Source: Psammoneis japonica (lineage: Eukaryota). Taken from it: a stretch of 61,940 nucleotides of DNA. The DNA is taken from positions 124,001 to 185,940 of the forward strand of contig QPGO01000149.1 of assembly GCA_008632985.1 (NCBI GenBank), read 5' to 3'. A program made the translations under genes and the position numbers. Shown here piece after piece: positions 8,328 through 55,582 of the stretch. How positions within the stretch are numbered: position 1 is the first letter of the stretch; each line of letters opens with the position of its first letter. A model generated the notes under the pieces. It made no database searches. It had not been told where the DNA came from and saw only the letters and a list, made by a program, of their open reading frames with translations.

Positions 8328-8599
8328 CAAGAGGGTGTTTGTGTTTGAAACAAAAAATAATGGACAACCGTACCCTTTTCTCTTTCCTCTCTACCTACCG
8401 GTACCTCGCTCTGTTCTTGTTTTTCGTTTCATTTTACACGAACTCACGACTGATCCGCGGGTGCGCTGGTAGGTCGCTGGTCGCGTGTCGCGTGTCGCGT
8501 TCTCATGTTGCGTCATGATTGCATCACCAAACAAACGCGGATGATACGTACAGTACGTTCGACATCCATCCTCGCTGAATCACAGTCTAGCAGTTAAGC

Positions 8600-14101: not shown

Positions 14102-14261
14102 CCACTTTAAAGTGTGGTCGGGACTGGGGTATATTATTTGCGGAAGTTAAAGCAAAGACGACTTAGTATAATGCATAACAATAGCTACTAGCTATATACG
14201 AATCTTGCAAATTCACGCTCACACTTGCAGTAACGTAACGGCTCTCAGAGCAGAACCGCCA

Positions 14262-14722: not shown

Positions 14723-14838
14723 CGTTTCTTGCTAGCTAGATAAGAAGGTTTCGTTTCTCTACAGATCTGGGTACAAAGGGCAATCTATCTAGCCCTATGT
14801 TCTTAGGGTTCTCCCGTCGAGTAGCACATTTGCAAACT

Positions 14839-30780: not shown

Positions 30781-31182
30781 GCTACCATTACACACTACCA
30801 GCCACTTTTTTAAAGAAGGATCTAACTAAGACTATAGATCTGTAACTATTTTGTACAGAATGCTGAATTGTATCTGACTCATCCTTCGCAGAAGCTACAG
30901 TATTGTGTGTCCGGACCGCGAAACACCGCGAAGTGCGAGGCGCGAACGCATCAGTCATGCGAATCGATGCGAAACGGGACTCAAATTTTGGAAAATTTCG
31001 CAGAGAGCGTTCGCGCGAAGCGGAGCTGACAGCTTGAAAGAAGAGCTGACGATGAGAGCCGTAGCAAAAAGAGGGTGTACTGTATCCAAACTTAGCTCTC
31101 ACTTCGCTCTCCCCTTGTTTCATCTCCCGTCGATCGCTTCTCTTTGCACTAAAGGTTTTCACATAGGTTATTTGTTTCAATC

Positions 31183-34826: not shown

Positions 34827-35259
34827 TGCAGCATGCCTCGCTACTGGACAACACGGCGAGACCGTGCATAAGCCTCTTGTACGTGGCAACGTAGTGTTGT
34901 TAACACGTACCTGGGAAGCACGACCACAGGAGGGCGTGGCTCTAGGTCTCAGGCAATTCCAGAAGGATGCCAAGAGAGCACCCGTGTGAAGCACACCAGC
35001 CCGTCGTCTGGCCCACGATGGTGGCGTGATTCCACACGATGACATCACTCGTGCATGGCATGTGATGGCTTGATTCGCACGATCCACAACGCGAACGCAC
35101 GATCGATTTGATGCGATCCAAATGTGAACGAACAGGGATTTGGCAAGATTCCCTGTTCGCACGATCCCATTTTCTCCACTCTAAACTGGCTCACAATTTT
35201 CACAACGACAAAGTCGCAACACATCTTCTTTTTTCAGCGCCTGGTGCATGCACAGGGCA
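34827..35259 (+). repeat. Gypsy 5' LTR
   Basis: Direct repeat of 39226-39658, same length. Confidence 0.92.
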
Positions 35260-35320
35260 CAGCAACATTGCTCCCGCATGTTGTGCGAGGTGTCGAAATC
35301 TACAGAAACGAAACTACGAA

Positions 35321-38300
35321 ATGTTGGCAGGACCGACAAATCTTAAAACGACCATGAAGAAGCGGATTGAGCCGCCGATTCTGTTCGCACGGACGGAGAA
35401 GAAAGAGCTGCAGCAGGGCGAGTGCCAGACGTTCAAGTTGCATGACAACCCCACTGATCCGGACAGTCCAACGCACGAGATGGGCATCCCGTGCCTTTCT
35501 GCGGCTACATGCGAGACACTCCCAATCTTTCTGCGCAACGTGGATCGCGTGCACGAAGGACAAAACATCACGACCGGGCCAGCGAAATTTGCCCTTGTGC
35601 GTGACCTGCTGCAGGGCGATGCTCTGACATCATTTGACAATGCCGCTGACAAGCAGGCATCCCAAACCAACGCTGCGCACGCAGCATGCATCGCGAAGCT
35701 AAAGGAAAGTGTCTTCCCACACAGGGCGGTGCCATTGCAGAAGCGTCATCTGCGGCACTTCATGCGCAAGCCCGCAGAGGTTTCCACTCGTGACTGCGTT
35801 GTGAGGGCTGTTGAAATTAATGGCCATGTCTCTCAGTTTCCACCCGTGACGGAGGATGGAGAAACACCGGCACCATTGCCCAATGACGAACCATGCGACA
35901 TGTTCGAGTGCAGCGTGCCGAACGCATGGCAGAAGTTCATGACGCTACAGAATTTTGACCCGTTGGCGCATGCTGTCGCCGAATTTATGCAGTTCTGCGA
36001 GCGCACCGAGCAGGTCGAGCTTGCCGAAGGTAACCGCAACCAACACATTGAGGTTCCACGCAAGCGGGGACGTAGAACGGACAATCCTGAGTCGTTGATC
36101 ACGACCCAACGGAACACCCAGAAGTCGTGTGTGCTGCACGGGATTAACTGTGGACATCACACGGAGGATTGCCGTCAGCTCAAGCACCACGTGAAACGTG
36201 TCAAGACTGGACATTCCAACAACGGAGGCGGCAAGCCCAATGTAAAACCTCGGAATGAGGAAGATGTCAATGCTCTCATCGGATCGAAGGTCGAGGAGTT
36301 CTTTGCCAATGCTCAGAAAAAGCGCAAGGCACGCGAGGAGGAAATTGATCACTTCCGCGACCTCAATTTAAGTGATTCCGAAGACTCGGACACTTGCCGA
36401 CACGATGCAGGCAATTTTAACACATTGGATGAATGCACAAATGAACAACTGAACTGCCATCGTGCACGTGTTGCAGGCCAATCCCGCAAACAAGTTAAAA
36501 AGACTCATCTTGCTCCAATCTTGTTTGTGGCTGTGAATGCCAAACATGGCAAGGGCAAGACTCAAACCATTGAGGCACTGCCAGACAGTGGCGCCAGCAG
36601 CACTCTACTCGACAGTCAATGCTGCAAACGTCTGCGAAGCCATTCAACGGCTGAGACAAACTGGGCTGCGGCAGCAGGCTCGTTCAGCACGTCCAACGAC
36701 TGTGCCACGCTCGTCCGTGTGAAGCACCTCGTGCGTACGAAGCTACGCTGCATAAAGAAGTAGAATGCCTGGCACGCATCGGTGTTCTCAAACGCATTGA
36801 CCGATCCCAATGGGCAGCTCCATCATTTGTCATGCCGAAGAAAGATTTGATGGCACGCTTTGTTGATGATTTCAGAGAGCTGAACAAACGGATCAAGCGA
36901 TTGCCTCATCCGATTCCTCACATCCAAGATGTGCTGCTTGAGCTTGAAGGCTTTGTGTGGGCTGCGTCGCTGGATTTAAACATGGGCCATTGTCACATCC
37001 GATTGGATGCTGACAGCAAGAAGCTCTGCATGCTCATCTTCCCGTGGGGCAAGCATGAGATGCAGGCATTGCCCATGGGATCATGCAATTCGCCAGACAT
37101 TTTCCAAGAACGCATGTCAGGCTTGTTTGAAGATCTGTCGTTCGTTCGAACGCACTTAGATGACCTTCTCGTCGTGACGAAAGGCACCTGTGAAGATCAC
37201 CTCAACAAACTTGAAGAAGCTTCATTGAGGGTCCAGAAAGCAGGACTAAAAGTTAACGCAACTGAATCTCATTTCTGTCAAACCCAATTAGAGTGCTTGG
37301 GTTGTCTGGCCAACAGAGACGGAATGCGACCAATGCCCAACAAAGTCGACGCCATTAAGCGAATCGCGACCCCAACCAATGAACGCGACCTGCGTTCATT
37401 TGTTGGCATGGTGAACCACTGCCGCGACACGTGGATTGGACGTTCTGAAGTCTTGGCTCCGCTAACATGACTCGCAAGCGAGACTGTTGAGTGGGAGTGG
37501 ACGTCCGTTGAAAACGAGGCGTTCGAAACCGTCAAACGGGTGACATTGGATGATGTTTTATCATCACATCCTGATTTTAACAAACCCTTTGAGGTGCATG
37601 CCGATGCCTCTAAATGTCAATTGGGAGCAGTTGCATCCCAAGATGACAAACCCATCGCCTTTCACAGCAGAAAGCTCAACAGTGTGCAATCAAATTGCAC
37701 AACAACGGAGAGAGAATCACTCGCCATTGTGGAGACGTTGAAAGAATTTCGAACGATTCTCCTTGGTCATCGTGCAATTACATGTGCTGATCATAAAAAT
37801 CTTACGTGCAAAGCATTCAATGCCGAGCGCGTCATGCGCTGGCGGCCAACATGCGAAGAACACGGTCCCGAATTACGCCATGTTAAGGGCACCCATGACC
37901 CAGTCGCTGACGCTCTTAGTCGCCTTCGACTGGCACCCAGCTTGCCTTCCGAGGCTAATCCGGATGCAAAAGACACTCCATCGAGTCGTCCTTTGCATGA
38001 AGCCTTTAATGCAGACGCTCAAGATGAGCCATCTCTGCCTGTCAGCTTCAAGCGCATTCAAAAAGCACAACAAAAGGACAAGCGCCCACTCTCACGAGCC
38101 AAGGACTCGTCCGACTGCTCCATTCGCGCGCATCGTGGGGGAGGGTCATCACGACAGTTAATCTGTCATGAGGACAAAATCGCAGTGCCACAGTCATTGC
38201 AGGTTCCACTGACTGAATGGTGCCACGAGACACTGTGTCATCCAGGTGAGACACGCACGGAAACATCTGTTGCCCAGCACTTCCATTGGCCCAGCATGAG

Positions 38301-39270
38301 GTCTACGGTGCATTCTACGTGCGTTGGGTGCGATCGATGCCAGAAGACAAAACGCCGAACGCAGCGTTGTGGGAAGCTGCCAGAAAAGGTCGCAGAGACA
38401 ATTCCATGGGAGACTCTGTGCATGGATGTGATGGGGCCACACAAAATTCAAAGACGCGGAAAGGACACCTTGCAATTGTGGGCAGTCACAATGATTGACC
38501 CAGCAACCGGGTGGTTCGAGATTAAAGAAGTGTCTGCGAAACGCGCAGACGTCGCAGCAAACGTCGTGGAACAAACGTGGCTGTGCAGATGTCCGTGGCC
38601 AACCCAGGCAGTTCATGACCGTGGGACAGAATTTGTGGCAGAATTTAGCCAGATGATTAAAAATGACTGTGGGATTTTGAAGAAACCCATGAGTGAACGG
38701 AATCCACAGGCAAATGCCACAGTGGAACGTGCACACCAGACACTTGGCAACATGGTGCGTTCCTTTTCAGCACAGGACATGGAACTGGATGAAGATGACC
38801 CATGGAGTGGCATCCTCTCCGCAGTGGCCTTCGCTGTTAGAGCTGCGGTGCATGCGACCACGCGTGCAAGTCCCATGCAATTGGTCTTCGGACGCGATGC
38901 GGTTTTGTCCATTGCCCATCGTGCCAAGTGGAAGCACACAGAAACCAGAAAGCAGAAGCTTGTCCACTTAAACAACAAGCGTGAAAATCAGAAACGCAAG
39001 GAGTGTCAACATGCCGCAGGGCAATTGGCACTTGTCAAACAGGAACAATCCTCTAAATGCGGTTCTGACAGCCACGCAGGACCCGCCAGAGTTGTCCGTG
39101 TGTGTGACAACGGCATGTTGCGCATCCAGAACGGAGCACTGACAGACACGTGTGATCTGCGGCAGATTGTGCCCTGTCACCAGCAAGACATTCTGTCACT
39201 TAACGGCCCTGATCATGGGGGAGTGTGCAGCATGCCTCGCCACTGGACAACACGGCGAGACCGTGCATGA
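35321..39270 (+). pseudogene. Gypsy gag-pol: gag, protease, RT, RNase H, integrase; apparent deletion/frameshift near 36710-36760, TGA at 37468
   Basis: CVLHGINCGHHTEDC; ALPDSGAS; WAAPSF..DFRELNK; LDLNMG; HLDD; ADAS; DHKNL; H..LCHPG..CDRCQ; DVMGP; HDRGTEF; PQANATVER. Confidence 0.93.
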
Positions 39271-39658
39271 GCCTCTTGTGCATGGCAACGTGGTGTTGTC
39301 AACACGCACCTGGGAAGCACGACCACAGGAGGGCGTGGCTCCAGGTCTCAGGCAATTCCAGAAGGATGCCAAGAGAGCATCCGTGTGAAGCACACTGGCC
39401 CGTCATCTGGCCCACGATGGCAGCGTGATTCCACACGATGACATCACTCGTGCATGGCGCATGATGGCTTGATTCGCACGATCCACAATGCGAACGCACG
39501 ATCGATTTGATGCGATCCAAATGTGAACGAACAGGGATTTGGCAAGATTCCCTGTTCGCACGATCCCATTTTCTCTGCTCTAAACCAGCTCACAATTTTC
39601 ACAACGACAAAGTCACAACACATCTTCTTTTTTCAGCGCCCAGTGCACACACAGGGCA
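39226..39658 (+). repeat. Gypsy 3' LTR
   Basis: Direct repeat of 34827-35259. Confidence 0.92.
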
Positions 39659-39697
39659 CTGAATAAAATCGACCGCTGAACAACGATCCATCCTCAA

Positions 39698-41585
39698 GCA
39701 CTGCCATCCTTCTTTTACAAGTTTCCTGCCTTGGGCGATGACAGTCAAGTGCGGATTGCTCAGATGGCAATGCACCATCTCTGCAGCACAGGCCCGTGGG
39801 GGCACGAAGAATCTCGGTAGATGAAAGGTCTCCCCATCTTCGTCTTCACTCTGCACCAGTCAGGATGTGAGCCAGCAACCTTGAGCTTTGATCCCCACAC
39901 TGCAAAAGGAAACCGTCTCTCGACAAGTGGAGTTTCTCTCATTTTTGAAGCCCCAGTGTGGATTGGTCTGTTCGCCTGCAACCTGCCCACATCTGCAAGG
40001 GCCAACAATTTTCTGGTTGGAAATCGCGGCATTCGTCAATTGCAGTGCTTGCGTGTTCGCCACTCTGTGCTGCTTGTTGGACCTTTTCAAAAATCTCTCC
40101 ATTTGCACACTGCCAAAATGCCTTTGTGCCATGAAAGGTTGGGCCATGGCAGCTTGTTGGTTGGTCCTCTCCTTGTTTGGTCGGTTGTCACGATGATGGA
40201 CAAACCAGCAGTGGTCAGCAGTGCCAGATTTGGTCTGCAATCTTGAATCAGTGAAGCACGTTGGGGAAGGAAGGACAGTTGCTTCATCTGAGACCTCGTT
40301 GATTGTGTTGGCTCCGGCACGCCAACACCCTCCCCTGATCAAAGCATCGGTTTGATCACAAAAAAAGAAGAGCCGCACAAATGGAGCAAATGATGCTGTC
40401 ATCAGAAAAACACATCCACAAATGCCGTGCCACAGTCCACCGGACAATCCGCTGCAAGGCAATGCAGCACAAGAAACCCTCCCCCAGTTGGAAGAAGAAG
40501 AGCAAGGGTCGTCATTGGACAGCTTCGACAAATCCAATGTTGGGTCATCAAACCAGGGAGCAGAACAACAAACAGCAAGGAAAGACGGCTTGGGTCATCA
40601 TCAGAAAGGGTCAAGACATCCAAGGAGAGGTTGGTCATCCACGTGACGGGGTGCGGGGCATCCTCGTTTGGGTCGTCGTCGGGCAGCTTGGATGGATCCA
40701 AAGTCACGGCAGAACCAAACCTGAGAGAAAAGCCAGCTGGGGCAATGGAAGAACCTTCAAAGCCAAGTCCATCAATCCAACCAAAGGAATGCAGTGGCAA
40801 CACAGCATTTGCAATGGGATGTAGCTGCAAAGACTGCAATCCAGGGGAAAATGGGTCGTCGTCGGGGAGTTTGGAAGGATCCAACGTGGCGTCTGTTCCA
40901 AAACAAAGAGACACGTCAGCATCATTCCCAGAAGCAGGAGCATCGCAAACACAACCGTCAACCCAATCAAAAGGATGCAAAGGGAAAGCAAAGGCCCTGG
41001 TTGATCTCTCAGTGGCAGAGAACCAGATCGACAAGATGCGGCAGGGCTGCACGGGCAACCCGCATCAGGGCATCGCTCAGGGGGCTGCACAGGCAAAATG
41101 GACTCATGCGCCACCTTGGAAGCTGCTTTGTCAATGTCCATGTCGATGACAAAGGGATCAGAAGTGGGAGAGGCAAGCTGTTCAAGCAGAAAATGCCGCC
41201 ACCAGTCAACATGCGAGCGGAGGCAAGGAAGTGACTCAAAAGAGCAGGGGGGCAAGAGCTCCTCTAGAACCGTCCTGGGATCCTGACTTGAAAACTTTGC
41301 AAACAGGAAAGTGTGCAGATAGAACGCATTCCAAGCATTGTCACAATCAGGCAGCTCAAAATTCTCTGGTTTCGTCAGCTCCAGAGCCAGTTGGAAAGAA
41401 TCTACCGGCGCCATGGGGTGACAGAAAAGAGCTCCCGACTGCTTGTCTGCAGAGAGCATTGACCGGCAAGAATCACATCCACAGCTGCTGGCACATTTCA
41501 CAAGAAGGAGAGAGGAAGGCTGAGAGGCAGGATCATCATCAGCTATCCCGGAGAGGTCATCACTGGTGCCGTAAGAGAGCGTCAT
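39698..41585 (-). pseudogene. Disrupted gene-like sequence with five D-x-x-x-(L/I)-x-(D/N)DDP motifs; 3' part probably continues at 34344 toward ~33900
   Basis: Minus-strand frames give DLSGIADDDP, DPSKLPDDDP x2, DVLTLSDDDP and DLSKLSNDDP across frameshifts. The frame reads through the empty TTAA site (KEGWQC-LILFRYNKEG). Confidence 0.5.
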
Positions 41586-42002
41586 GGTTCGCCGGGATAA
41601 AACAGTATCAACACGTAGAACTTGTACTAGAGGTCACGTAGAAGATGTCCGATTCGGAGGATGAAGGCTGGCAAGTCTTCGTAAGGCTTACGAGCATCAA
41701 CAACCACCGGCAACGGAGTAAAAAATAGCCAATATCAACAGAATGGATGCTTGTCAATGAATCACTGCAAAAAAAGCAGCAAAGCCTTGATGGATCGAAG
41801 GGTGCAGTGCCGTAAGTCGATTCGTCGCCGTGGTTGGATCCTGCGTAGAAACAATGCTGGTTCCCACGTAGAAAAAAACAAAGTCGTTGAAAAATAGTCG
41901 AAGTGGTTGGTGGCCAACGGGCTCTTCCATAAGACGAGTTGAGGTGCTCGAATGTAACGCATTGACGCTATGTGTCCCAAATAACGCAGAGGAGGCATTA
42001 AA

Positions 42003-42043
42003 GGTATCATTCAAGGGTTGATGAACAAAGACCCCGGACTTCT
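42003..42043 (+). repeat. 41-bp exact copy of 57378-57418
   Basis: GGTATCATTCAAGGGTTGATGAACAAAGACCCCGGACTTCT occurs at both positions. Confidence 0.92.
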
Positions 42044-42194
42044 GCAGTGCAGAGTTGCAGCGATGGAATGGAGAAGGAAGTAACTCAGGTTACAGCTTCC
42101 ACGTTGGAAACGGTACGGGTTCTTCACACAATGCGAACATAACACCCTAGCATGCTCAACCAAAGATAGATCGTCGATGAATCGTTCAAAATCA

Positions 42195-43754
42195 TCAAAG
42201 TTTTAAGATAGACTTCAGCGTTTCTACCTGATCTTGAAGCAGCCTATCATCATCCGTGAACTCAGAACGACCGAAATCAATAATCTTGGCGCGTTTCGGA
42301 TCCTCACTGCTCTGTACAATGTTTCGGAGATCCAGATCGTTGTGCACAAGACCAGCTCCACTCAAAAGACGTAAACTTTCTAATGCCGATACTCGAAGCT
42401 CAAGAGAAATGTTTTCGAGACCAATGTCCTCGAAACTAGGGCCTTCCTTTCCCAAGCACAACAAAGGAACTCCGAGATGGGTGCTGAATCCATAGAACTT
42501 AGCAATGGCGTCCTTTACATTGGAGTTCTGAGACAGCTTCTGGTATGCTGACGCCTCGTTTGTCATTTCTTCGGCAACATGTTCTGCCCGAGTATTGTAC
42601 TGCATTTTGATAAGGACAGAAGGGTTTTTGTTGCTGGAAAGAAGCTTGACATTGTCATTGTAATCGACAAGTTCACAGTCCCACATATAGACACGAGAAG
42701 CGAATCCAATCGCGTCTTCAGAGCAGGCCGATGTTGCTCCTGTCTCACTCTTTCCATCGTCAAGTTTCTTTCTGCTTTTATTTGGGAGACTGTTCTTATG
42801 TGTCGATTCTGGTGGGTCTCTTGTTTTCTTCTTCCGGTCTTTGTCGGGACTTTCTTCCAGACGACGGGCTTTTACAGCGGAAGCAGGGTGGCAAGGGGTC
42901 TCCTCTAGTTTGAAGTCACGAAACTCTATAATGGTCTTGATTGCCTGAAGCACTGATGGCGAGGTTTCTTCCTTCCGAAACGGGCGAGAGATCTTGAGCG
43001 TACCATTAGAATCGCGGCAGCAAAACCACCAAACTTCGTACAGATTGATCACGCCGTACCTAAGCCTCGAAGAAAGCATTTGACCGTAGACTTGACGAAT
43101 CAAGTGAAAAACTTTCTTTTTTCCTTTTGTCCACTCTTTTGGAAGAGGAGATTTGCTCTCCATATTTTCAGCCGTGAAGCCATTAGGATATTGAAATAGA
43201 GTTGTTAGCACTCTCGTACCGTCGCCGCGTAGGAGAAAGCGGAATTTCCAGAAAGGCTTGGTTTCGAAAGTACATAAGGGAACGGTGTTTTCAATGACAT
43301 GTCTCGACACTGCCTGGCGGCTCACTGGAGATTTATACTCAGACGGAGCAGATATTATCTCTTGCCCTTCTCGTCGTAGCGCAACCAAGTCTGGCTGTGA
43401 CAACGTGTATACATCGTTTTTCACAATGTCAAAGTCAGCCTGTACTATTCGAAATACCTTGAGTAACGCCCGTGTATTGTCTGTCACATCTTCTTCTCTC
43501 TCGACATAATCAAGCCCAGTTTGAAGGATGCTTGCACCAACATTGGTGTCAATTATGCGGGTGTTCTCGGGTCGTTGTGATGCCTCTTGAATCTTGGTTG
43601 GAAACTCGGGCCACTCTTCAACAGAGATGGGAGTGTGGGAATGAGCAGCCCACGTCGTTGATCCCTTTCCTTGCCTCTGTAATGAGCCATGTAAGTAAGT
43701 TAGATTCGGCAGTGCAACGTTAATATGGTCCCATACGCTTTGACGAGACGCCAT
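42195..43754 (-). CDS. Restriction-endonuclease-like domain fused to a protein-kinase-like domain (Crinkler-type REase+kinase architecture)
   Basis: 519 aa. QPDLV..CTFETK..IRQVYGQM..LRYGVI..WWF, then VLIKM..NEASAY..LVHNDLDLRNIV..KIIDFGRS. Confidence 0.78.
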   Translation of the reverse strand: MASRQSVWDHINVALPNLTYLHGSLQRQGKGSTTWAAHSHTPISVEEWPEFPTKIQEASQRPENTRIIDTNVGASILQTGLDYVEREEDVTDNTRALLKVFRIVQADFDIVKNDVYTLSQPDLVALRREGQEIISAPSEYKSPVSRQAVSRHVIENTVPLCTFETKPFWKFRFLLRGDGTRVLTTLFQYPNGFTAENMESKSPLPKEWTKGKKKVFHLIRQVYGQMLSSRLRYGVINLYEVWWFCCRDSNGTLKISRPFRKEETSPSVLQAIKTIIEFRDFKLEETPCHPASAVKARRLEESPDKDRKKKTRDPPESTHKNSLPNKSRKKLDDGKSETGATSACSEDAIGFASRVYMWDCELVDYNDNVKLLSSNKNPSVLIKMQYNTRAEHVAEEMTNEASAYQKLSQNSNVKDAIAKFYGFSTHLGVPLLCLGKEGPSFEDIGLENISLELRVSALESLRLLSGAGLVHNDLDLRNIVQSSEDPKRAKIIDFGRSEFTDDDRLLQDQVETLKSILKL

Positions 43755-44288
43755 GGCTTCACCGTCACTGTCGCGTACTTTTAGGTGAAAGCAAGACGAT
43801 TTGATTTGATTTTTCAGGATCGATTTTCTATCGGACCCCGCCAGAAGTTATCCGTACAAATGCCATGATGCCATATGGCATTTCTTTCTACGCCGGACCT
43901 GGTACTGATTCTACGGAATGCCATAAAGCGCGTGAAAAAGGCGTGCCGGCGTTGATGATTCGTGTGAATGAGATAGGCACATGTACTTTATGACCGAGTG
44001 TGCCCTCTCTGATGTATGTATGTTAACTAACGTATTTTAGATATACCGGGAACCGTTAGGTTTGCCCCACATCAGCGATGATGGGGTCTCTCCTCGGTTC
44101 TCGCACAACTTTTATCAAGTCATCTCAAGCTAGATCTTGCACTGCAATTGCAGTTGTTGTCATGGCTTGTTCATTGCATCATCTGTTTTATGACAACGCG
44201 AAGAGTGTTGTCGAGAAGAGAGAAAATTTGTTTGCGAGCTCGTGCAGAAAATTTCATTCAAAATCGATCAGAAGCGCAGCGCAACTTT

Positions 44289-44564
44289 TGACAGGATTTG
44301 AACAGGATTTGGGTGCGCGCGAAATGTCACGCACTGTTTAGTTTACCGTGCACAGTTTTGTGTGCTTTAGTTCCGCGCGTTCGCGCGCGATGCAGTTTGC
44401 TTTCGAGCCACAAGGCTCACAAGAACAATGACAGCAGCCCGATTGTGCCGACTCACACGTCTTTCGGCTCCTGTGACGGTCTCTGAGCGGAGACTCATCT
44501 GCTGTTTAGACAGCAGTGAGGAGTTGTTGTTTGAATTCTTGCCATTTGCCGTCAATTTCTGTCA
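44289..44564 (+). repeat. Copia 5' LTR
   Basis: Direct repeat of 51016-51291. Confidence 0.95.
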
Positions 44565-45500
44565 GATCAACAGTCTTGCTCATTGTCAACCCATTGAGCA
44601 ACCGCCATCGTCGTCGTTGATTTGCCGACGACGCTGTTTCAATTCTGCGTGGATCTCCGCATGTGTTCTACATGCATCGGCAAGTCCATGCGCATTCAAC
44701 ACCAGGCACTGGCAGGAAGTTAACGTCACCGTCAAGTCTCCTCACCACTGGATGTCTGGATTGACCACACTGCCTTTCATCGCTGAAGACATGCGTTCAA
44801 CGGTCACACCCAAGTCTGTCCTTGATCCTCATCCCTTGATTTGCCCATTCAACGGTTAACGGTCAAGAACCCTGCATGTTCAAGGATCTTCGTCGCTGAA
44901 GACATGTGTGTGTGCACATCTTCATGGCCAAGGACTTGCACCCACTCTTTGGACTGCGGCTTTGCTGCCACTCTGCAAGCACGCCGAGTCCACTGCACCT
45001 GATCTAGCCTGGACTGCTGGTGCTCCACAGTTCTGCTGGGTCCACGAGGACGACTGTGAGAGCAAGCAGCCGTGATTGCAGCCTGCGTTGGGGTGAGGGT
45101 GTTTTCCCGTGTTTGTTCGTTTGTCCACAGTGCCCAACGCCTGCGTCAACTGGCCAGCCTGATCGGGAAATCCAACCGACATGTGATGGGAATGGTTCAG
45201 GGGTCTTGTCCACCTCTGGTCAGCTTGCCTGCAGGGGTTTACAACCCGCTGCTCTGCTCGCAAGCAACCCAAAGCGCCACCAGCTGCGGGTTCGGACGTG
45301 CCGGCACAACTCTGCGGACCGGATGGGAAGTTTAGCACTCAACAACGAACGGGATGGCACAGCCCGGCGTCTTCTGATTTTAAGGCAGTTCAAGATTTCA
45401 AGTCAAGTCCATTTCAAGTCAAGTCCATTCTCACCCAAGTTTCAAGTCCACCTTCGCTTCCCAACAAGAATTGCTTGTCCTGGCACCACTTTTGTCTGCC

Positions 45501-48500
45501 ATGGTTCTCACTCATCAGCAACAAACCGATGGTTTCGAGCACATTGTTGGAACCGTGCTTGCCCAAGGTGCTGGGAGCCCTCTTCGTTTGGCTTTGACCC
45601 AAGACAGCACGGACTCGCATCAAGAAATGTTCACGTTCATGCCGTCCCAAATCGACTCGCTTGAGTGCGACAATGGCACTGATGTGATCCCTTTGCCCCG
45701 CGGTTGTAAGAACATGTTAGCAGCTCTGACCAGTCTGTGCGTTGTCAAAGCACACAAAGGTCTTGACGTTGCCAATGACTTCTCGTTGTTCACGCATGAC
45801 GAGTTCCTTGCCTGCTGCCTCAGCCCCGACTGCATGTCTTCTGTGTCCATCGGCAGTTCGCCCCTTGCACCTCCGCATGTCACCAACCCGACCAAGGCAC
45901 GCGACCCGGTGCGAGACTTCAAGTGAGGCATCAAGCGTGACCCCACCGCTTTCACGGCTCTCAAATCCAACAAGCAGTGGCACACTTGGCACACCTCACT
46001 TGTGGCACAAGCCCGTGCCCAAGACGTCGAGTGCATTCTAGACTCGTCGTACAAACCGACCAGCCCCGAAGACAAACTGCTCTTTGCTGAACAGCAAAAG
46101 TGCATGTTCGCCGTCTTCGAACGCATCCTTCTCACCGACAAGGGCAAGGCTCTCATTTGCGAAAATGTGGGGTCTTCTGATGCCCAGACCGTCTGCCGTG
46201 CCTTGTCTGAGCATGCGCTCGCCTCCACCTGCGCATCTGTCGAGTCCTCCACCTTGCTCACGCACCTTGCCACCGCACGTCTTGGTGATGGCACTTGGAA
46301 AGGTCCAACCCATGGGTTCATCCTTCATTGGCAAGATCAGTTGCGCAAGTGCAAGGCACTCATCCCGGCCACTGACCACTTCTCTGAAGGACAGAAGTGC
46401 GTCATGCTCGAGAATGCCGCACATCCTGTCGAGGAACTCCGTGCTGTCAAGAACCAAGCTGATCAGCATCGCACACAGAGTGGCAAGAGCCTCACATGCG
46501 ATCAACACTGTGGCTCACTCCTCTCCGCGGTGGCTCAATGCAACAGCACGTTTCAACCCAAGATGACACCTCAAGCTCCCCGACGTGCCACACACGCACA
46601 CGACGTCTGCTCCGAGGAACCGTCCGATGATGTGTTCTGTGACATTGACAGCGACATTGACGTCCTTCAGGCTGATGCTGCCTGCACCCGTGGTCCCAGC
46701 CTCACCGGTGACCAATGGAAACGTCTCCCTCCCGACCACCAACGGATTTGGGATTCGTCGCCCCATTCCTCCAAGGCGATCATCCTTGAGCATTCTCGTC
46801 CGCCTCCCCGCAACCCGCGAGCCAGCAACTGCCATGAGTCCGTTGCGGCCAACCTTCACGACCAACGCCTTGGGAGTGACGGTGCTGTCAACTTGTCCAA
46901 CACGACTCCTGCTGACTCTGGTGACCCCACTCCAAATGTGGGTGCCACTTCGGATGATCCCATCCTGGCGCACCTCACCAAGCGCAAGCCACTGCCACCC
47001 GGTGATCTGCAACGTCTGTTGTCTCCTAACCAAGCCCCCAACGCCAGTCGACCGGGGCCATCCGCCGCTCCCTCTGCCTCGCCAGCTCCTGCCGATGACA
47101 TGGAACTTGACGGCCGCACTTGCCGCCGCGTCAATGACCACAATGTCATTTGCTCTGCCTCTGCTCATCGCTCCACACGCACTGGTGCTCTGGTTGATCG
47201 TGGGGCCAACGGCGGCATTGCTGGCGACGACGTTCGCGTCATTGCACGCACCTCTCGCCAAGTCGACGTTCAGGGCATTGACGACCATCAATTGGTGGAC
47301 ATCCCTGTTGTCACCGCTGGTGCCGTCATTGAGACCCAGCGTGGTCCCGTCATCGCCATCCTCCATCAGCACGCATGCACGGGAAAGGGCAAGACCATTC
47401 ATTCCTGCGGCCAGCTCGAATGGCACAAACAGGATGTCAACGATCGCTCTGTCAAGGTGCCCAACGGCTTGCAATGCATTGCCACTCCTGATGGCTGTGT
47501 CATCCCCATTGACATCAAGGGTGGCCTGCCTCATGTTGCTGTGCGACCTTGCACTGACGCCGAATGGGACACCCTGCCCCATGTCATCCTCACCGGTGAT
47601 GACACATGGGATCCTTCCGTCCTCGATCACTCTGTCACTGATGACGACCAGTGGTGCGACGCGATCTCTGACCCACAGGACGATCCCACTGCCAACCTGT
47701 TTGACGAATGCGGCAACTGCCGTCATCATGTCGTTGTCAACAAGACCATCATGTCCGCTTCCTTGTCTGCCGATCACGCGTCCGCCCTCGATGATCACCT
47801 CATTCCGAACGACGACGTGTTCCACGAGTGTCATCTGCACGCGATTGACCCCAAGGACGACGACGTTCCGCCCCCGGAGCGCACTGTGCAGCCCAAGGAC
47901 CCCCCCTTCGAGTCTCTTCGGCCTTGCTTTGGCTTCCCACCTGCCGACACGGTCCGTCGTACTTTTGACTGCACCGCGCAGTGCGCCCGCATGCCCGCCG
48001 GCACACACCTTAGGAAGGCCCACAAATCACCCAACCCCGCCCTTAATGTGCACCGCCGCAACGAGCCCATCGCCACTGACACCGTTCACGCCGACACCCC
48101 GGCCGTCGACTCTGGTTGCACCAGCGCCCAACTGTTTGTTGGCACCGAGTCTGCTGTCACTGACGTCTGCGGCACCAAGACGGACAAGGAGTTTGTCAAC
48201 ACACTTGAGGATCAGATCCGTGAGCGTGGTGCCCCATCCAAACTCATTGGCGACCATGCTCAAGTTGAGATCAGCAACAAGGTGCTCGGGATCCTGCGAG
48301 CCCTCTTCATCTCCAGCTGGCAAAGTGAGCCTCACCAGCAACACCAAAACTTTGCCGAGCATTGACACCAGACCGTGAAGCACATGGCGAACACTGTCAT
48401 GGATCGTTTCGGTTCACCTGCCCACACATGGCTGCTGGTGCTCATGCACGTGTGCTTCACACTCAACCATGCAGCGTCCCCACGTCTCCACTGGCGCACG

Positions 48501-51015
48501 CCCCTCGAGACTCTCACTGGCTCCACCCCAGACATCAGCCCATTGCTTCACTTTCACTGGTGGGAACCCGTGTGCTTCCACCTCGATGACTCCGATTGGC
48601 CGTCCGAATCCCGTGAGTTGCGTGGACGCTTTGTTGGCATTGCTGAGCACGTCGGCCACCAGATGACCTTCAAGATTCTCTCTGACGAGACTCAGAAGAT
48701 CCGCCATGACGACAACCCCGTCGATTCTCCTGATGGGGAGATCAGGACACCCAAGATGCCCGTTTTCGATCCGCAAGACATCATCGGACGCACCTTCCTC
48801 ATGCAGCCACAAGAGGACGGACAACGCCACAGAGCTCGCATCGTCAAGGCCGTCAAAGACCACGAATGGAAAGTGAACGGCAATCCCGAGCTCACTAAGT
48901 TCGTCTGCTCTGTCAACAACGACGAATGCGAGGAAGTCCTTGCCTGCAACGACATCATGAATCACATTGAGCAAGAAGGCGAAGACACTGCTGTTTGGAA
49001 ATTTCGACGCATTGTGTCACACGAAGGACCTCTGAAGCCTCATGACCCAACCTGGAAAGGCTCAAGCTACAACATTGTGCTTGAATGGGAAAGTGGGGAG
49101 ATCACGTCCAAGCCTCTTGCCATCATCGCCAAGGACGATCCCATCACCTGCGCCATCTGTGCACGAGAGAACGGACTTCTCGACACTGATGGCTGGAAGC
49201 AGTTCCGCACCATCGCGAGGCGCCAGAAGAAGCCATTCTGCATGGCCAACCAAGCCAAGCTTCGCTCCTTCTGCACTGCACCTCGCTGCAAGTGCGGGTG
49301 CGAAGTTCCCCGGAACTACAAACACGCCATGTCACCAGACGAATGCAACAGCAACCGCAAATGGGGAGACGCAACTAATCTCGAGATGGACCAACTAGAG
49401 GAATGTGAAGTCTTCCATGACTGTGGGCCCTTCGAGTCTTCCACTCCTCCTGCGGGACACAAGAAGATCCGAGTGCACCCAGCGCACGACGTGAAACACG
49501 ACGGTCACCACAAGGCACGACTCGTGGCCGATGGGCACCTCACGGACGCACCCATCAACAGTGTCCACTCCGGAGCAGTCTCCCTCCGTGGCCTTCGGCT
49601 GATGATTTTCCTGGCCGAACTCAACGAGTTGGAGACATGGGCCACCGACATTGGCAATGCCTGCCTTGAAGCCACCACCAAGGAGAAGCTCTACATTGTA
49701 GCCGGACCCGAATTTGGCAAACTCGAAGGACACATCCTTGTCATCCACAAGGCCCTGCATGGACTGCGCAGCTCCGGTCTCCGCTGGCACGAGCGCTTCG
49801 CCGACTGCCTGCGAGCTGAAGGCTTCTTCCCCTGCCGCGCCGAACCCGACATTTGGATGCGCAGGAACGGCAACCACTGTGAATGCATTGCCGTTTATGT
49901 GGATGACCTCGCCATTGCCATGAAGGACCCTCAATCTTTCGTCGACACTCTCACAGAAAAGCACAAGTTCAAGCTCAAGGGTGCGGGACCCATTGAGTTC
50001 CATCTGGGCTGCGACTTTTCCCGGGATCCCGACGGCACCTTGTGCCTGTCTCCGTGCAAGTGCATTGAGCGCATGGTCGACAGCTGCACCCAACTGTTTG
50101 GGGAGAAACCTGCCACCAACGCCCTGTCACCTCTGGAGAAGGGTGACCACCCCGAACTGGACACTTCCGAACTGCTGGGGCCCGATGGCATTCACAAGTT
50201 CCAGTCTCTTGTTGGTTCACTCCAATGGGCAGTGTCCCTTGGTCGAATTGACATTGCCACGGCCGTCATGTCACTCTCTAGCTTCCGAGCTGCGCCCCGT
50301 CAAGGCCACTTGGATCATGCCAAACGCGTCTGTGGGCACCTCTCCAAGATGCGACACGGCGCTCTCCGCATTTGCACGGAAGAGCCCGACTGTTCGGATC
50401 TCCCTGCTCCGGCCCATGAATGGATGCATTCCGTGTACGGCGAAGCAGAAGAGATGATCCGGAAGGACGCTCCACCACCCCTTGGCAAGTTCGTCACTGC
50501 CACCCACTATGTTGATGCAAACTTGCACCATTGCATGCTCACCGGACGCTCTGTCATGGGAATGCTCCACTTCCTCAACAAATTCCCGGCTGATTGGTTC
50601 TCTAAGAAACAAGCCACCGTGGAGACTGCGACCTGCGGGTCTGAATTTGTTGCCGCAAGGACTTGTGTCGAGCAGATTGTCAACCTGCGCATCACCCTGC
50701 GCCACCTTGGCGTCCCGATCCGCAATGTCAGTTGCATGTTCGGTGACAACAAGTCGGTTGTAGACAGTGCCACCATCCTGCACTCCAAGTTACACAAGCG
50801 ACACACCGCACTGTCGTTCCACCGTGTGCATGAGGCAATTGCCTCTGGTTGCCTTGAGCTCCACTTCATCGAAGGCTCCCGCAACCCTGCTGACATTCTC
50901 AGCAAGCATTGGGGTCACTCCCAAGTCTGGGACCTTCTCCGCCCCCTCATGTTCTGGAACTTCATTCCATCCAAAGTCGAATCTGTTTCTGTGGCTCCTC
51001 AAGCAAACTGGGGAG
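45501..51015 (+). pseudogene. Copia polyprotein with in-frame TGA at 45924 and 48363
   Basis: DFK*GIKRD; LVDRGANGG protease; IATDT..GDHAQVE..SEPHQQHQNFAE integrase; KARLVADG, DIGNA, YVDD RT; YVDA, GSEFVA, GDNKSV, NPADILSK RNase H. Confidence 0.93.
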
Positions 51016-51291
51016 TGACAGGATTTGAACAGGATTTGGGTGCGCGCAAAATGTCGCGCGCTGTTTAGTTTGCCGCGCACAGTTTTGTGTGCTTCAGTTC
51101 CGCGCGTTCGCGCGCGATGCAGTTTGCTTTCGAGCCACAAGGCTCACAAGAATGACAACAGCAGCCTGATCGTGCCGACTTACACGTCTTTTGGCTCCTG
51201 CAACGGTCTCTGAGCGGAGACTCATCTGCCATTTAGACAGCAGCAAGGAGTTGTTGTTTGAATTCTTGCCATTTGCCATCAATTTCTGTCA
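51016..51291 (+). repeat. Copia 3' LTR
   Basis: Direct repeat of 44289-44564. Confidence 0.95.
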
Positions 51292-51474
51292 ACTTTACTC
51301 GTGAAATTGGCGATGCGGAGCAGCGTTTTTTTGAACTCAAAGCACGTGTTGCTGCCATTGAATTTGTTCTTGTTTGGTCATTGGTTGTTCTTGTTGTGTG
51401 GATCAAATGGGAACGCCTTGTTTCGTTTGTCTTGTGGGTTGTTGATCATTTGATCGCTGAAATTGTTCATCGCC

Positions 51475-54400
51475 ATGTGTCAAGAAGCCTTGGAGAAAGC
51501 GTGCATTGAATGTAAGACCAAATTCGTAGATTCAGAATTGCAGGAAGTGAAGCTCACTCAAACCTTTGATGATGGCACTAAACTTTCGAAAATGTGTCCT
51601 GTTTTCACAGGAGAGCATGGAATTGAATCATTGTTGCACGTGGAGGATGGGTTCCGGAAGGTGGCAAGACAGCTCGACTACGATGCTGGAACAGAATTGT
51701 TTGATGCTTTCGAGGATTGTCTCCAAGGCACTGCAGAGACCAAATGGCAGAATGTTGCCGCGGGTGTCCAACAGAATCAACGAACGGCAGCTCGATTCAA
51801 TCAGGCTGTCTCGGCTTGCTGTTTGCGCTGCGTAAAACCGACAGCTCGCGACACGATGAAGATGCATTTGCCTGCTTGCAAAAAGCCTCATTCAGTGGAA
51901 TTGGAAACTCACATTCATCATGTGGAAACCTTGTTTCGTTGTGCCAACCATTTGCCTGGAACCGTTCCTGAACTTGCAGAGCAGGAGCAGAAGAACATCA
52001 TCTTTTGCACCTTTCCTTTGACCTGGCAACAGTCCCACATTCGTGCGGGCAAGAACCTTGTTGCGGATTTGATGGTGGATGTCCAAGCCCACATGAGCAA
52101 CGAGAAGGTGTTCGCCAGTGGTCAAGACAACAAGAAATGCAAGTCCAACAATGGCAACGGAGGGAACTCCAGTGACAAAAAGGGCAACCGAGACAAGAAG
52201 GATGACAAGGGCCAGCCGAAGGCGAGTGATCCGTGTCCGGTCCCGTGGCACCATGGAAGGCATGTGTGGGGCCAGTGTCATGACAATCCAAACAACCCCA
52301 ACTGTCGTGGGCCTCAAAACCGTGGCGGTCAAGGAGGAGGCCGTGGCGGTGGAGGTCGAGGCGGAGGTCGTTTCCAAGGAGGCCGTGGACAAGGCCGTGG
52401 AGGCGGTGGATGCTTTGGTGGTCGTGGCAACCAGAACCAAGGAGGTCGTGGTGCCTGTTGTGACAACAACAACAACAATGGACACCAGAACAACAATGGC
52501 AACCAAGGTGGTGGTCAACATTGTTGCAATGAAAACAACAACCGTGGAGGCCAAGGTCAGGCCGACAGATGTGCTGCTCAAGCAGACAATGTGAACAATG
52601 ACAACCAGGCTTGAGAAGCTCCTCGTGGTGATGTGCACCATTTCAATGTGATCGGACGAGGCCCTCCATGTTGTGGAGGTGTGGTGAGGTTTCAGCCAGA
52701 TGGGCAGTTTCCTTGGCAGTTCTGAAAAGAAGGAGCTGAATGCTCCGGAGCTGAATGCTCCCAATTGCCTGTGAGAGAAGCACTTGTTGATGAAAGTGAT
52801 TGTGCTCCACCTGAATGAAATGATGGATGTTTTGCTTTTGACTGCTTTGAAAATCCTGACAAATTGTTGCCTGTTGAATTTGAAAATGCTGCAGAAAATT
52901 ACATGAATGAAGAGGGGGATGTGTTTGATCAAGATGCATTTGAACACAACATTCCTCTCCCCAAAATGAACTCGCAAGTCTCGCGCACCGCGTTGGTCCC
53001 ATCTACACTGCTTGTTGCAAAATTGATCCAACAGCATGAGTCGAATCACGTGATGCGTGTTTTGTTTGACTGAGGTGGTTCTCACACTATGATCTTGTCT
53101 CAAGTTTTACCTCGAGGAGCTGTGCCATCCATTGACAAACATGGAGTCCAAGCTTTTCAAACCATTGCAGGTCCTTTCCAGTCTGGCCGTTGGGTGGCCT
53201 TGAGCAACATCGCATTGCCAGAATTCAACAAGACCAGGAGGATTGACGGCTGTGTGGCTCACGCATTCGATGCTCTGTGTGTGCATGATGTCATTTTGGG
53301 TTGAGATTTCTTGGACAAGATTGGTCTCAATTTGAACTGTGATGCGAGAACGCTGCATTGGCTAGACCGTGTGATCCCAATGAAGGAACCTCGTCATGGG
53401 TCCAAGTCCTGCAATTGGCACGTTGCTTTAGACCGAATGGATGAATTTGATGAAGATCACGAAGACGAGTCGGGCTACGGATGCGACGACAGATGTGACA
53501 CCCACATGCTTGATGCCAAGTACGAAGCGACGGATCCGGCGGAGGCAGTTCGGAATTTAGACCATCTCACGGAAGAACAAAAGAAGAAGCCACCAGCGGT
53601 GTTGGAAAAGCACTTGACTTTATTTGACGGGACGTTGGGCCACTGTCCTCATGAAAAGGTGCACCTTGAAGTGGATGAAAACGCTGTTCCTTGTCACTCA
53701 AAACCGTTTCCTGTTGCTCAAGTTAATGAAGAAGTGTTCAAGAAGGAATTGAAGCATCTGGTGAATCTTGGCGTGCTGCGACCATGTGGACCTGTGGAAT
53801 GGGCAGCTGGCACCTTCATTGCTCCAAAGAAAGATGGTCGAGTACGATGGGTGTCAGATTTTTGGGAGCTCAACAAGGTCCTCAAGCGGAAAGTGCATCC
53901 TCTGCCAGTCATTCAAGATGTGCTGCAGCGGAGAGCGGGCTACAAATTCTTCACGAAATTGGATCTCACCATGTTCTGCTGCAGTTTGGAATTGGATGAT
54001 GAAAGCAAGGAGCTCGCTACAATTGCAACTCCCTGCGGAAAGTTCCAGTGCTGTCGCATGGCTGTGGGATTGAAGCCAGCTCCAGACATTGCTCAGTCCA
54101 TTGTTGAAAAGATTCTTCATGGTTTGGATGTTGAAACTTGTGTTGATGATGTTGGCGCATTTGATGCTGACTTTGATTGCCATCTCTCTCGTCTTGACAA
54201 GGTGCTGCATCGTCTCGAGGAGAATGGTTTGAAAGCCAACCCATTGAAGTGCGAGTGGTGTGTTCAAGAAACCAATTTCCTGGGGCATTGGCTTGCTCCG
54301 ACTGGTGTTAAACCGTGGAAGAAAAAGGTCAAAGCGATTCCACGAATGCAACCCACACGGAACACCACTCAACTCCGATCGTTTCTCGGTGCAGTGACTC

Positions 54401-54848
54401 ACTGTCGCAACGTGTGGCCTCACCGTTCTCACCTGCTTGCACCTCTGACTGAATTGACAGGCAAGAGTCAGTTCCAATGGATGGAATCATGCCAGAAAGC
54501 GTTCAACGAGATGAAAGCAGCAATCACGATGGAAGCATTGATGGCCTGCCCTAACCACAACCTGCCATTCCATGTCTGCGCCAATGCATCAGACTGCCAG
54601 ATGGGCGCCGCTGTCATTCAAGATGGCAAACCGGCGGCGCATTGGTCTAAGAAGCTTTCGGCGGCTCAACGGAACCAGTCAACAATGGAAAAGGAACTCC
54701 TGGTCGTCATCATGTGCTTCAAGGAATTTTGCTCAATGACACTCGGTGCTGAAATCACTGTTCACACTGATCACAAAAATCTCACCTTTCGCACTTTGAA
54801 CACACAGCGCGTCCTTCGTTGGTGACTGTTCCTCAAAGATTTTGCGCA
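51475..54848 (+). pseudogene. Gypsy gag (RGG-rich tail), protease, RT, RNase H; multiple TGA stops
   Basis: CPVPWHHGRHVWGQC; LFD*GGSHT; DVILG*DFL; PKKDGRVRWVSDF; KLDL; CVDD; LRSFLG; EKELL; TDHKNL. Confidence 0.9.
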
Positions 54849-55400
54849 AACAAACAAAAATGCAGAGAACCGCAATTGCCAAGTGCTCTCCATGGATTTT
54901 TTCCTCGACACTTTGTGAGAGACTCAACACACATCCTTGCAAAACATCAAGTCATGATTGCTGCAGCAGCAAACATGTCCACAGCCGCTCCGACTCCCTG
55001 CCAGTTGAGAAGGTGAAAACTGAAGTGCCCATTTGCCTCAAAACTGCAAACAATGAGAACCACACCTGTGGACTGCTTTTCATGAAGAATTGAAGCTGTT
55101 TGCTGATGCAAAGGGACTGAAAGAGAAGCATGTGGTTTGCCAAGAGAACCGCGGGGCCAAGGTGCTCTCACCCATTCTCATCAATGGACACCGTGGAAGA
55201 GGGTGGGAAAATCGAAAGCGTCATCCTTCCTTGGTGCATGGAGGGTGGCATTTCAAGAAGACATGCCCTGTCCCAGGAAAGCACCGTGGGTGTGATGGAC
55301 CTGAAGATGAGACGACAATGGAAGTCTGGCAGGCCGCGCAACGAGCATGAGTCATCAGGACAGGCACACGCACACGCACATCTTCTTGTTGTTCCTCGTT
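54849..55400. repeat. Unclassified TpA-depleted fragment abutting the truncated Gypsy
   Basis: TA almost absent until ~55420. The sequence does not continue the integrase. Confidence 0.45.
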
Positions 55401-55582
55401 CCTCGTCTCCTTGCTTGGTTTATCGCGATGACGGACAAACCGAAATTTTGAATTTTGAATGACTATCCATTGACGATGTTGTATAATATATTTAATTTTT
55501 ATTAGACTGCGCTACTGTATTGAGCTTTCCTGCTTTTTCTATCTGCAGTTGCAGACTCTAGACGTGCGTTTTGGTTTCCACG

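Follow-up and report, generated by a model that had tools for sequence, protein, structure and literature searches.

To our knowledge, dinucleotide-specific hypermutation as protection from mobile DNA was long known only in its C-to-T form, as fungal repeat-induced point mutation (RIP) and as APOBEC in animals. An A-to-G counterpart acting at TpA has been reported once before, in 2026, for viral insertions in one rhizarian alga. That alga is the chlorarachniophyte Bigelowiella natans. The available text of the preprint (Mettrop et al., bioRxiv 10.64898/2026.01.13.699255) describes A/T to G/C hypermutation in integrated DNA of giant viruses and virophages, restricted to TpA. Its mutation-accumulation lines yielded 302 nuclear single-nucleotide mutations, of which 231 lay within two integrated viral regions. 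The mutations in those regions were almost exclusively A-to-G or T-to-C and were all on TpA; their rate was ~6e-7 per site per generation, compared with 3.5e-10 elsewhere. Among the TpA-poor coding sequences of that genome, the reverse-transcriptase and DDE families of Pfam are over-represented, and the authors propose an ADAT2-like protein as the enzyme. The Discussion of the same preprint states that enzymes of the ADAR/ADAT lineage favour a U in front of the A that they edit (10.64898/2026.01.13.699255). Here we consider 61,940 nucleotides of the diatom Psammoneis japonica (assembly GCA_008632985.1, contig QPGO01000149.1, positions 124,001 to 185,940, forward strand). We call this whole stretch the window and count positions from its first letter. 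It carries three long terminal repeat (LTR) retrotransposons: Gypsy-1, a truncated Gypsy-2, and a Copia element nested inside Gypsy-2. We argue that these integrated retrotransposons and some adjoining unclassified sequence have very probably undergone TpA-specific hypermutation in place, in the nuclear genome of the diatom.

Four TA-poor domains, 21,864 bp in total, hold 137 TA where 795.6 would be expected at the flanking background of 36.4 per kb (Poisson P ~1e-183). In 2-kb windows the observed/expected ratio (obs/exp) of TA is 0.05-0.24 in repeat domains against 0.5-0.7 in genes, while CA and TG stand at 1.3-2.0 in the domains. The claim that first drew attention to this DNA, that its retroelements are depleted of TA and the neighbouring genes are not, is therefore confirmed, and in a stronger form than first stated. 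Bins of 500 bp hold 0-10 TA inside the domains and 10-35 elsewhere, and the longest TA-free run is 1,067 bp. Between 83% and 95% of TA is lost, which is near-saturating. The borders are sharp to 40-140 bp and nothing spills into the flanking genes; dense TA ends at 8,595, 34,943 and 44,189 and starts again at 41,544 and 55,464. The original prediction drew one span from 34,827 to 55,400. Two TA-poor domains do lie inside it, but the span also contains a TA-normal island with a host gene, and the depletion begins about 116 bp inside the Gypsy-1 5' LTR instead of at 34,827. Two further TA-poor domains lie beyond that span, at 8,596-11,039 and 60,269-61,940.

What the domains lost in TA they hold as CA and TG. 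They have 6.3 TA per kb against 36.4 and 194 CA+TG per kb against 146, which is TpA depletion with CpA+TpG enrichment. Relative to background the balance is -30 TA, -10 CG and +48 CA+TG per kb, so the loss roughly equals the gain. The two strands are struck about evenly, with 689 CA to 540 TG in one large domain and 1,032 to 1,027 in the other. This is the signature described for Bigelowiella natans in the available text of that account: transitions at TpA only, to TpG or CpA by strand, in domains of foreign DNA, with the same depletion and enrichment. The original prediction knew of no described system like this. It did not anticipate that preprint (10.64898/2026.01.13.699255), which, as far as its available text goes, reports the same TpA-only signature. 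The two cases are not identical. The host here is a diatom, a stramenopile and not a rhizarian, and the preprint text at hand mentions neither diatoms nor stramenopiles (0 times). In the diatom it is LTR retrotransposons and unclassified stretches that are struck, with a TA obs/exp of 0.06-0.16 against the 0.45 given in the preprint for the giant-virus region.

The comparison with fungal RIP is also instructive. Both would act at the level of DNA after integration, both make dinucleotide-specific transitions in repeat domains, and in both transposon reading frames are destroyed while neighbouring genes are spared. However, RIP changes C to T at CpA, which gives TpA and AT-rich DNA, whereas here TpA becomes CpA or TpG and GC is 0.524 in the domains against 0.485 outside. 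Decay of 5-methylcytosine is a second known process to consider. Such decay cannot remove TA, but a component that looks like it is present: CpG to TpG/CpA changes occur alongside the TA changes in the same domains. They make up 13 of 36 difference events between LTR copies, they appear as Arg to His, Cys or Gln in Copia, and two domains have a CG obs/exp of ~0.19. These are the two outer domains (CG obs/exp 0.19 and 0.20), and both adjoin assembly gaps. In the younger elements CG obs/exp is 0.77-0.81 where TA obs/exp is 0.10-0.16, so, site for site, TA loss has gone much further than CpG decay. It had been argued beforehand that neither RIP nor 5-methylcytosine decay explains the TA loss, and this holds, since RIP runs in the opposite direction and 5-methylcytosine decay covers the CpG part only. 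The CpG component itself was absent from that account. It is also an addition to the Bigelowiella natans signature, as neither co-occurring CpG decay nor a flank preference of the kind reported below is found in the Results and Discussion of the preprint.

The direction of change can be read from conserved residues. The Copia proteins were aligned with MAFFT to 40 of the 120 listed homologues, and a column was called conserved when at least 80% of these agreed, which gave 465 columns. Gypsy-1 was aligned with all 120 listed homologues, and for Gypsy-2 the alignment took in the 74 of 149 representatives shorter than 1,600 aa. Copia keeps Tyr in only 5 of 24 conserved Tyr columns, the others being 10 Cys, 6 His, 2 Phe and 1 Trp. 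Tyr is thus changed in 19/24 columns against 38/441 for the other residues (P 6.5e-15). Gypsy-1 keeps none of 12 (7 Cys, 5 His), against 36/241 changed for the others (P 6.3e-10), and Gypsy-2 keeps 1 of 8, with 5 now Cys. Other Gypsy-1 residues also change as TA to TG/CA predicts: Ile is replaced by Val, Met or Thr, Asn by Asp, Thr by Ala, and Leu by Ser or Pro. Arg is kept there in 18 of 18 columns, and Copia has seven Arg changes of CpG type (4 His, 2 Cys, 1 Gln). Sorted by codon logic, the Copia changes are 22 TA-type, 13 CG-type and 22 other, and those of Gypsy-1 are 32, 2 and 14. The base before the codon matters as well. A T stands before 11 of the 13 codons in which position 1 went from A to G, compared with 152 of 717 conserved columns in total (Fisher P 2.7e-6), and unchanged codons that start with A have T before them in only 6 of 124. 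The original prediction named A to G at TA, on either strand, as the direction. Tyr to Cys or His at conserved columns of all three elements agrees with it, and an A-to-G excess free of TA context is not what is seen.

Loss of TA erases the Tyr codons, the ATA, TTA, CTA and GTA codons, and the TAA and TAG stops. Stop-to-stop open reading frames (ORFs) of Gypsy-1 have 1 Tyr in 565 residues, 1 in 271 and 0 in 599; those of Copia have 1 in 812 and 6 in 900, and those of Gypsy-2 1 in 386 and 3 in 506. All transposon ORFs together hold 13 Tyr in 4,039 aa, and seven host ORFs hold 117 in 4,523 aa. The near absence of Tyr from the pol ORFs, noted earlier, therefore stands, although the exact lengths and counts differ slightly since other ORF limits were used. 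The altered motifs listed at that time (HLDD, CVDD, NCTTTERESL, CADHKNL, LPDSGAS, LPMGS and GPH) are all present in the translations. The YxDD of the reverse transcriptase (RT) is now HLDD or CVDD, and therefore these copies are dead. TAA and TAG together come to 4.4 per kb per strand in TA-poor DNA against 15.5. At 45000-53100 and 39800-41650, both strands carry mutually overlapping ORFs of 150-600 aa in several frames, with only TGA stops left. Long overlapping ORFs run in all frames because TAA and TAG have been erased.

When did this happen? One answer is that it preceded integration, by A-to-I editing of retroelement RNA (ADAR/ADAT-like) or by deamination of cDNA in the manner of APOBEC3, which acts on C. 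All three annotated targets are retroelements, as this would predict, and Tyr to Cys (sense A-to-G) outnumbers Tyr to His by about 2:1 (10:6, 7:5 and 5:0). APOBEC3 on cDNA and ADAR on double-stranded RNA also leave clustered transitions in retroelement copies that become fixed in animal genomes. Their action is before integration and strand-asymmetric, however, and here both strands are struck about equally. The LTRs are more telling. The twin LTRs of an element are identical at integration, and RNA editing predicts that they stay identical. The two pairs here disagree in 48 of 704 columns and contain no indel or transversion. The differences amount to 36 events: in 10 one copy has TA and the other CA or TG, in 13 one has CG and the other CA or TG, 12 are doublets with CA facing TG in adjacent columns, and 1 is another transition. 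With the doublets included, 47 of the 48 columns set TA or CG against CA/TG, classes in which ~54% of random transitions would be expected. A doublet means that one ancestral palindromic dinucleotide was struck independently on opposite strands in the two LTR copies. Single random changes cannot produce it.

Three other sites bear on timing. The outer ~116 bp of the Gypsy-1 5' LTR (34827-34943) kept 7 TA, and in the 3' twin all seven are CA or TG (chance 1.7e-6 at a loss of 0.85 per site). Editing before integration does not account for a spared end in one twin only. The putative target-site duplication (TSD) of Gypsy-1 is CTAA where it adjoins TA-normal DNA and CTGA at its TA-poor end, and the empty-site joint in read-derived contigs (34825-39662) is CTAA. 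A 100-bp fragment of a host-gene paralogue at 40204-40303, 88% identical to 57097-57196, sits inside a domain and has lost 5 of 5 TA. Outside the domain, a second piece of that paralogue, 41 bp long (42003-42043 against 57378-57418), is 100% identical. Thus host-derived DNA was struck, and so were three TA-poor stretches in which no retroelement domain is found. We consider editing before integration very unlikely. The LTR twins, the TSD, the gene fragment and the symmetry of CA and TG place the process, as judged from sequence, on chromosomal double-stranded DNA after insertion, and they speak against RNA or cDNA editing. For Bigelowiella natans the mutations were seen de novo, according to the text available, whereas the timing here is inferred from LTR twins and the TSD. 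Because nearly every TA was struck against 1 other change in 704 LTR columns, the rate at TpA would be at least about a thousand-fold that of other substitutions at the same sites; this is an order-of-magnitude figure drawn from few events and not a measured rate. A contrast of about a thousand-fold is a further likeness to the Bigelowiella case as described in that text. As a separate observation, the two paralogue fragments of the gene at 56898-57578 sit 1.7 kb apart around TA-poor sequence.

One can also imagine that no mutational process acted here, and that the elements arrived free of TA (ancestral composition or selection against UA) or that assembly or base calling produced the pattern. 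TA is mildly under-represented across the window, including its genes at 0.5-0.7, the platform of the sequencing runs is unrecorded, and assembly gaps adjoin two of the domains. The sized N gaps of the window suggest a short-read scaffold. Yet an ancestral deficit does not fit the loss of conserved catalytic and structural Tyr, and LTR twins that differ at exactly such sites do not fit it either. The 79 metagenomic relatives of the Copia element have a TA obs/exp of 0.49-1.02. Contigs from public reads of the same organism carry the CA and TG states, so the reads do not restore TA at these sites, and the copies vary between TA, CA and TG. Nor do all copies share one Cys or His state, since other copies have TA where this one has CA or TG. 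Altogether 20,951 contigs from public runs map to 20 kb of the region, so the families are highly repeated. Summed contig depths, which are not copy numbers, are 13,000-23,000 for Gypsy-1 and 61,000-169,000 for Copia against ~55-140 for unique parts. Variant places among the copies in these contigs are 1,031 transitions against 159 transversions. Among the 40 places listed, many have TA elsewhere against CA/TG here, or the reverse, or CG against TG/CA, or CA-vs-TG doublets. The same kind of trace is found in proteins of other public assemblies. P0364, a Gypsy representative, has no Tyr and shows 3 Cys and 5 His at 8 conserved columns, P0412 (also Gypsy) has no Tyr, P0411 has 0.46%, and P0353 carries a weaker trace. 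Two Copia proteins are Tyr-poor. At 25 conserved Tyr columns P0187 shows 8 Tyr alongside 5 His and 5 Cys, and in P0218 the count at such columns is 12 Tyr, 5 Cys and 4 His. We regard ancestral composition or artefact as the most remote of the explanations. No relative came up when viral contigs were scanned with P0364 or with the Copia ORF.

Two side observations belong with these copies. The stretch 39943-40270 has a second version among the contigs (326 bp, 12 other letters, 2 gaps, depth 43) that carries CA-vs-TG doublets and CpG-type changes. It would fit two alleles or copies that were struck independently, and it is the single hint of de novo change in resident DNA. Among the metagenomic Copia loci, L013, L003, L008, L048 and L031 have a CG obs/exp of 0.10-0.25 and raised CA/TG, with an ordinary TA obs/exp of 0.49-0.66. 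CpG decay without TpA loss is therefore common in this family.

The flanks of the TA that survive give some insight into chemistry. Relative to the window background, survival is 0.71 for TTAA, 0.50 for CTAA/TTAG, 0.22 for CTAG, 0.21 for CTAC/GTAG and 0.18 for GTAA/TTAC. It falls to 0.12 for GTAC, 0.09 for ATAA/TTAT, 0.06 for ATAG/CTAT, 0.03 for ATAT and 0.018 for ATAC/GTAT. The ranking is unchanged against a second baseline, the 79 metagenomic Copia loci. Loss is favoured by a purine (A/G) before TA and a pyrimidine (T/C) after it, and TTAA and TTAG are relatively resistant. The counts were strand-symmetrised, so in these ratios a symmetric four-base site and a single-strand context are inseparable.

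Error-prone synthesis of the Pol eta type in the repair of repeat DNA was among the candidates proposed at the outset. Pol eta makes A-to-G errors at WA, more at TA than at AA. AA should then suffer too, but AA obs/exp is 1.0-1.3 in the domains, the same as in genes. There are no transversions or indels among the 48 LTR differences, and patch synthesis would hardly saturate one dinucleotide to this degree with a single other change in 704 columns. Pol eta is a poor fit, and we give error-prone synthesis very little credence. A different chemistry for the same phenomenon deserves more attention. In this scenario TpA in silent chromatin carries a modified base that mispairs at replication and so gives T-to-C / A-to-G. 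The base could be an oxidised thymine (5-hydroxymethyluracil or 5-formyluracil) produced by an enzyme of TET/JBP type, or N6-methyladenine at a symmetric R-TA-Y site. 5-Formyluracil pairs with G. In dinoflagellates 5-hydroxymethyluracil is enriched at TpA, although our literature search found no paper on this. The self-complementary R-TA-Y contexts are the ones that survive least and TTAA survives most, and the equality of the strands is what recognition of double-stranded DNA predicts. The strand-symmetrised counts cannot tell such a symmetric site from a single-strand preference, however. The 15 host ORFs of the window searched against Pfam include no such enzyme, and the sole described parallel favours an ADAT2-like deaminase, without proof there, in the text available to us. 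Base modification of this kind is unlikely in our view, but less so than the preceding alternative.

Adenine deamination in DNA is the chemistry we put forward, tentatively. Adenine would be deaminated to inosine. A hit on the A of the top strand would turn TA into TG, and a hit on the A of the bottom strand would turn TA into CA. The enzyme could be a deaminase with a U33-A34-like 'TA' preference (TadA/ADAT2-type) or a toxin-derived deaminase, recruited to silenced chromatin. The domains would be silenced, cytosine-methylated chromatin in which the slower decay of CpG to TpG/CpA runs alongside, and the role would be genome defence. The sequence suggests that the domains are silent chromatin, as CpG decay there is what methylated DNA shows. 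Taken as a whole, TpA-specific A:T to G:C mutation in situ after insertion, with deaminase chemistry as its inferred part, is probably the best explanation of the locus.

What marks a domain as a target is a separate question. A mutator aimed at repeat domains had been proposed. A TpA-specific mutator confined to these domains agrees with the data, but repetition is not established as its trigger, because a possibly low-copy stretch was struck and diverged gene duplicates were spared. Families of very high depth are struck, and so is the TA-depleted stretch at 39.66-41.5 kb, where the summed contig depth of ~140, which is not a copy number, is near the ~55-100 of unique parts; this stretch may be low-copy. 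Gene paralogues of at most 88% identity are spared. TA is normal in three paralogues with tetratricopeptide repeats (TPR) and a PH domain, in the internal repeats of a large gene, and in a kinase-like paralogue (87% identity).

Several points weigh against in-situ mutation by a deaminase. Discordant LTRs could in principle also come from reverse transcription, and the sites that counter this (the TSD, the gene fragment and the stretches outside retroelements) are few. The context ratios rest on proxy baselines and not on true ancestors. An R-TA-Y type of preference, with a purine at -2 and a pyrimidine at +1, is unlike that of ADAR, which favours a 3' G, or of fungal mRNA editing. None of the 79 metagenomic Copia relatives falls below a TA obs/exp of 0.49, so the process is not universal. 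That sample was the 79 best-scoring of 463 confirmed loci, which favours intact elements, and it says little on how widespread the process is. A miscall of modified bases in the read-derived contigs, whose platform is unrecorded, is unlikely because a strand-mixed miscall of modified TA should also create CG, yet CG is depleted. Finally, no mutator gene turned up in the window, as the original prediction had also noted: its 15 host ORFs gave no deaminase against Pfam, only TPR-PH, glutathione S-transferase (GST), GTP cyclohydrolase, a weak bestrophin, or nothing.

Full-text searches, with term look-ups in diatom transposon papers, gave no report for diatoms, and only the Bigelowiella preprint matched. 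The diatom signature is best filed as an extension of the type just described in Bigelowiella natans. It adds a lineage from another supergroup-level group, LTR retrotransposons as targets, saturation, evidence for action in situ and a flank preference. The same signature at saturation in diatom retrotransposons suggests that the process is widespread in algae of the SAR group and acts on transposons generally. The LTR twins, TSD and gene fragment of the locus serve as internal clocks; it also provides a flank motif, and its domain edges do not reach the ends of the elements. Transformable model species exist among diatoms. If the enzyme is a natural DNA adenine deaminase, it would be of interest for base editing. 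More speculative, and doubtful in all its parts together, is the idea that diatoms and chlorarachniophytes share an old chromatin-targeted defence. It would deaminate adenine in double-stranded DNA at symmetric R-TA-Y, as a mirror image of RIP that runs from A:T to G:C, it would kill an LTR retrotransposon while the insertion is still polymorphic, and its enzyme would be a natural DNA adenine deaminase of an uncharacterised type. There is also a practical consequence. DNA that is free of TA has few stops and so contains long spurious ORFs in all frames, from which gene callers will yield spurious Tyr-free proteins. Tyr-free 'proteins' of such origin already sit in public protein collections.

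The features are collected in Table 1.

Table 1. Positions of the TA-poor domains and of the parts of the three retrotransposons in the window.
Feature	Position	Strand	Remarks
TA-poor domains of the window	~8.6-11.0 kb; 34.95-41.5 kb; 44.2-55.46 kb; 60.3-61.9 kb
TA-poor, CpG-poor unclassified domain	8596..11039	.	ends at N run 11040-11212; 8500-11039 holds 11 TA where base composition predicts 160 (obs/exp 0.069)
Gypsy-1 left putative 4-bp TSD copy, CTAA	34823..34826	+	contig joint 34825 to 39662 is an empty site with a single CTAA
Gypsy-1 5' LTR	34827..35260	+	self-BLAST 434 bp, 93.8% identity to 39226-39659; 8 TA in total
Gypsy-1 internal region	35261..39225	+	gag/protease ORF 35066-36763; RT 36655-37470 (HLDD for YxDD); RNase H-integrase 37471-39270
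Gypsy-1 3' LTR	39226..39658	+	1 TA against 8 in the 5' LTR
Gypsy-1 right putative TSD copy, now CTGA	39659..39662	+	TA to TG in host-derived DNA
TA-poor unclassified stretch	39663..41500	.	TA-free runs of 1,004 and 443 bp; contains the 100-bp gene-paralogue fragment 40204-40303
TA-normal island with host gene	41,544-44,189		separates the two large TA-poor domains
Probable left end of Gypsy-2, split by the Copia insertion	44190..44288	+	TA sparse past 44189; holds left Copia TSD ACTTT 44284-44288
Copia 5' LTR, TG...CA	44289..44564	+	276 bp, 92.4% identity to 51016-51291
Copia internal region	44565..51015	+	gag-protease-integrase ORF 45927-48365; integrase-RT-RNase H ORF 48366-51068; Pfam RVT_2
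Copia 3' LTR	51016..51291	+	followed by right TSD copy ACTTT 51292-51296
Gypsy-2, truncated	51297..55460	+	gag-like ORF 51454-52614; RT-RNase H ORF 53305-54825 (CVDD for YxDD); Pfam RVT_1, RT_RNaseH_2, RT_RNaseH
TA-poor, CpG-poor unclassified domain	60269..61940	.	begins at an assembly gap and runs off the window; 6 TA against 105.6 expected (obs/exp 0.057)

Gypsy-1 matches the Pfam domains RVT_1, RT_RNaseH_2, RT_RNaseH and Integrase_H2C2, with a weak Asp_protease_2. Copia is ~55-62% identical to the 120 homologues listed, and contig joints from 44283/44284 to 51297-51301 span the element. Read-derived contigs bridge both the Gypsy-1 site (34825/39662) and the Copia site (44283-44286/51297-51301), as if empty sites were present in the same sample. 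This would follow if the insertions were polymorphic or heterozygous, or if the flanking sequence were itself repeated (the Copia flanks are Gypsy-2). The unclassified stretches gave no Pfam match at E<=0.001 in 47 ORFs, and the four weak matches (E 0.014-0.045) lie far under the cut-offs. Among these were 17 ORFs of at least 80 aa at 8596..11039 (one weak match, E 0.039), 15 ORFs at 39663..41500 (one, E 0.014) and 10 ORFs at 60269..61940 (two, E ~0.04).

Some of the host genes are worth describing. A JmjC gene lies in the window, and its best named matches, at 43-48% identity, are from Nitzschia, Cylindrotheca, Fragilaria, Fistulifera and Epithemia; the collection searched contained nothing near-identical to it. 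The three TPR-PH paralogues (3400-5682, 11801-14101 and 31153-33771, + strand) each encode TPR repeats, then an extended coiled region, and end in a PH domain at the C-terminus. Two large adjacent ORFs (21431-24385 and 25228-28911, + strand) share a signal-like N-terminus, MGRWSYALSV..., and have low-complexity, internally repeated bodies that match nothing in Pfam. GTP cyclohydrolase II and GTP_CH_N are found in ORFs 26-715 and 895-1536 (- strand), ~180 bp apart, which are probably a single gene with an intron.

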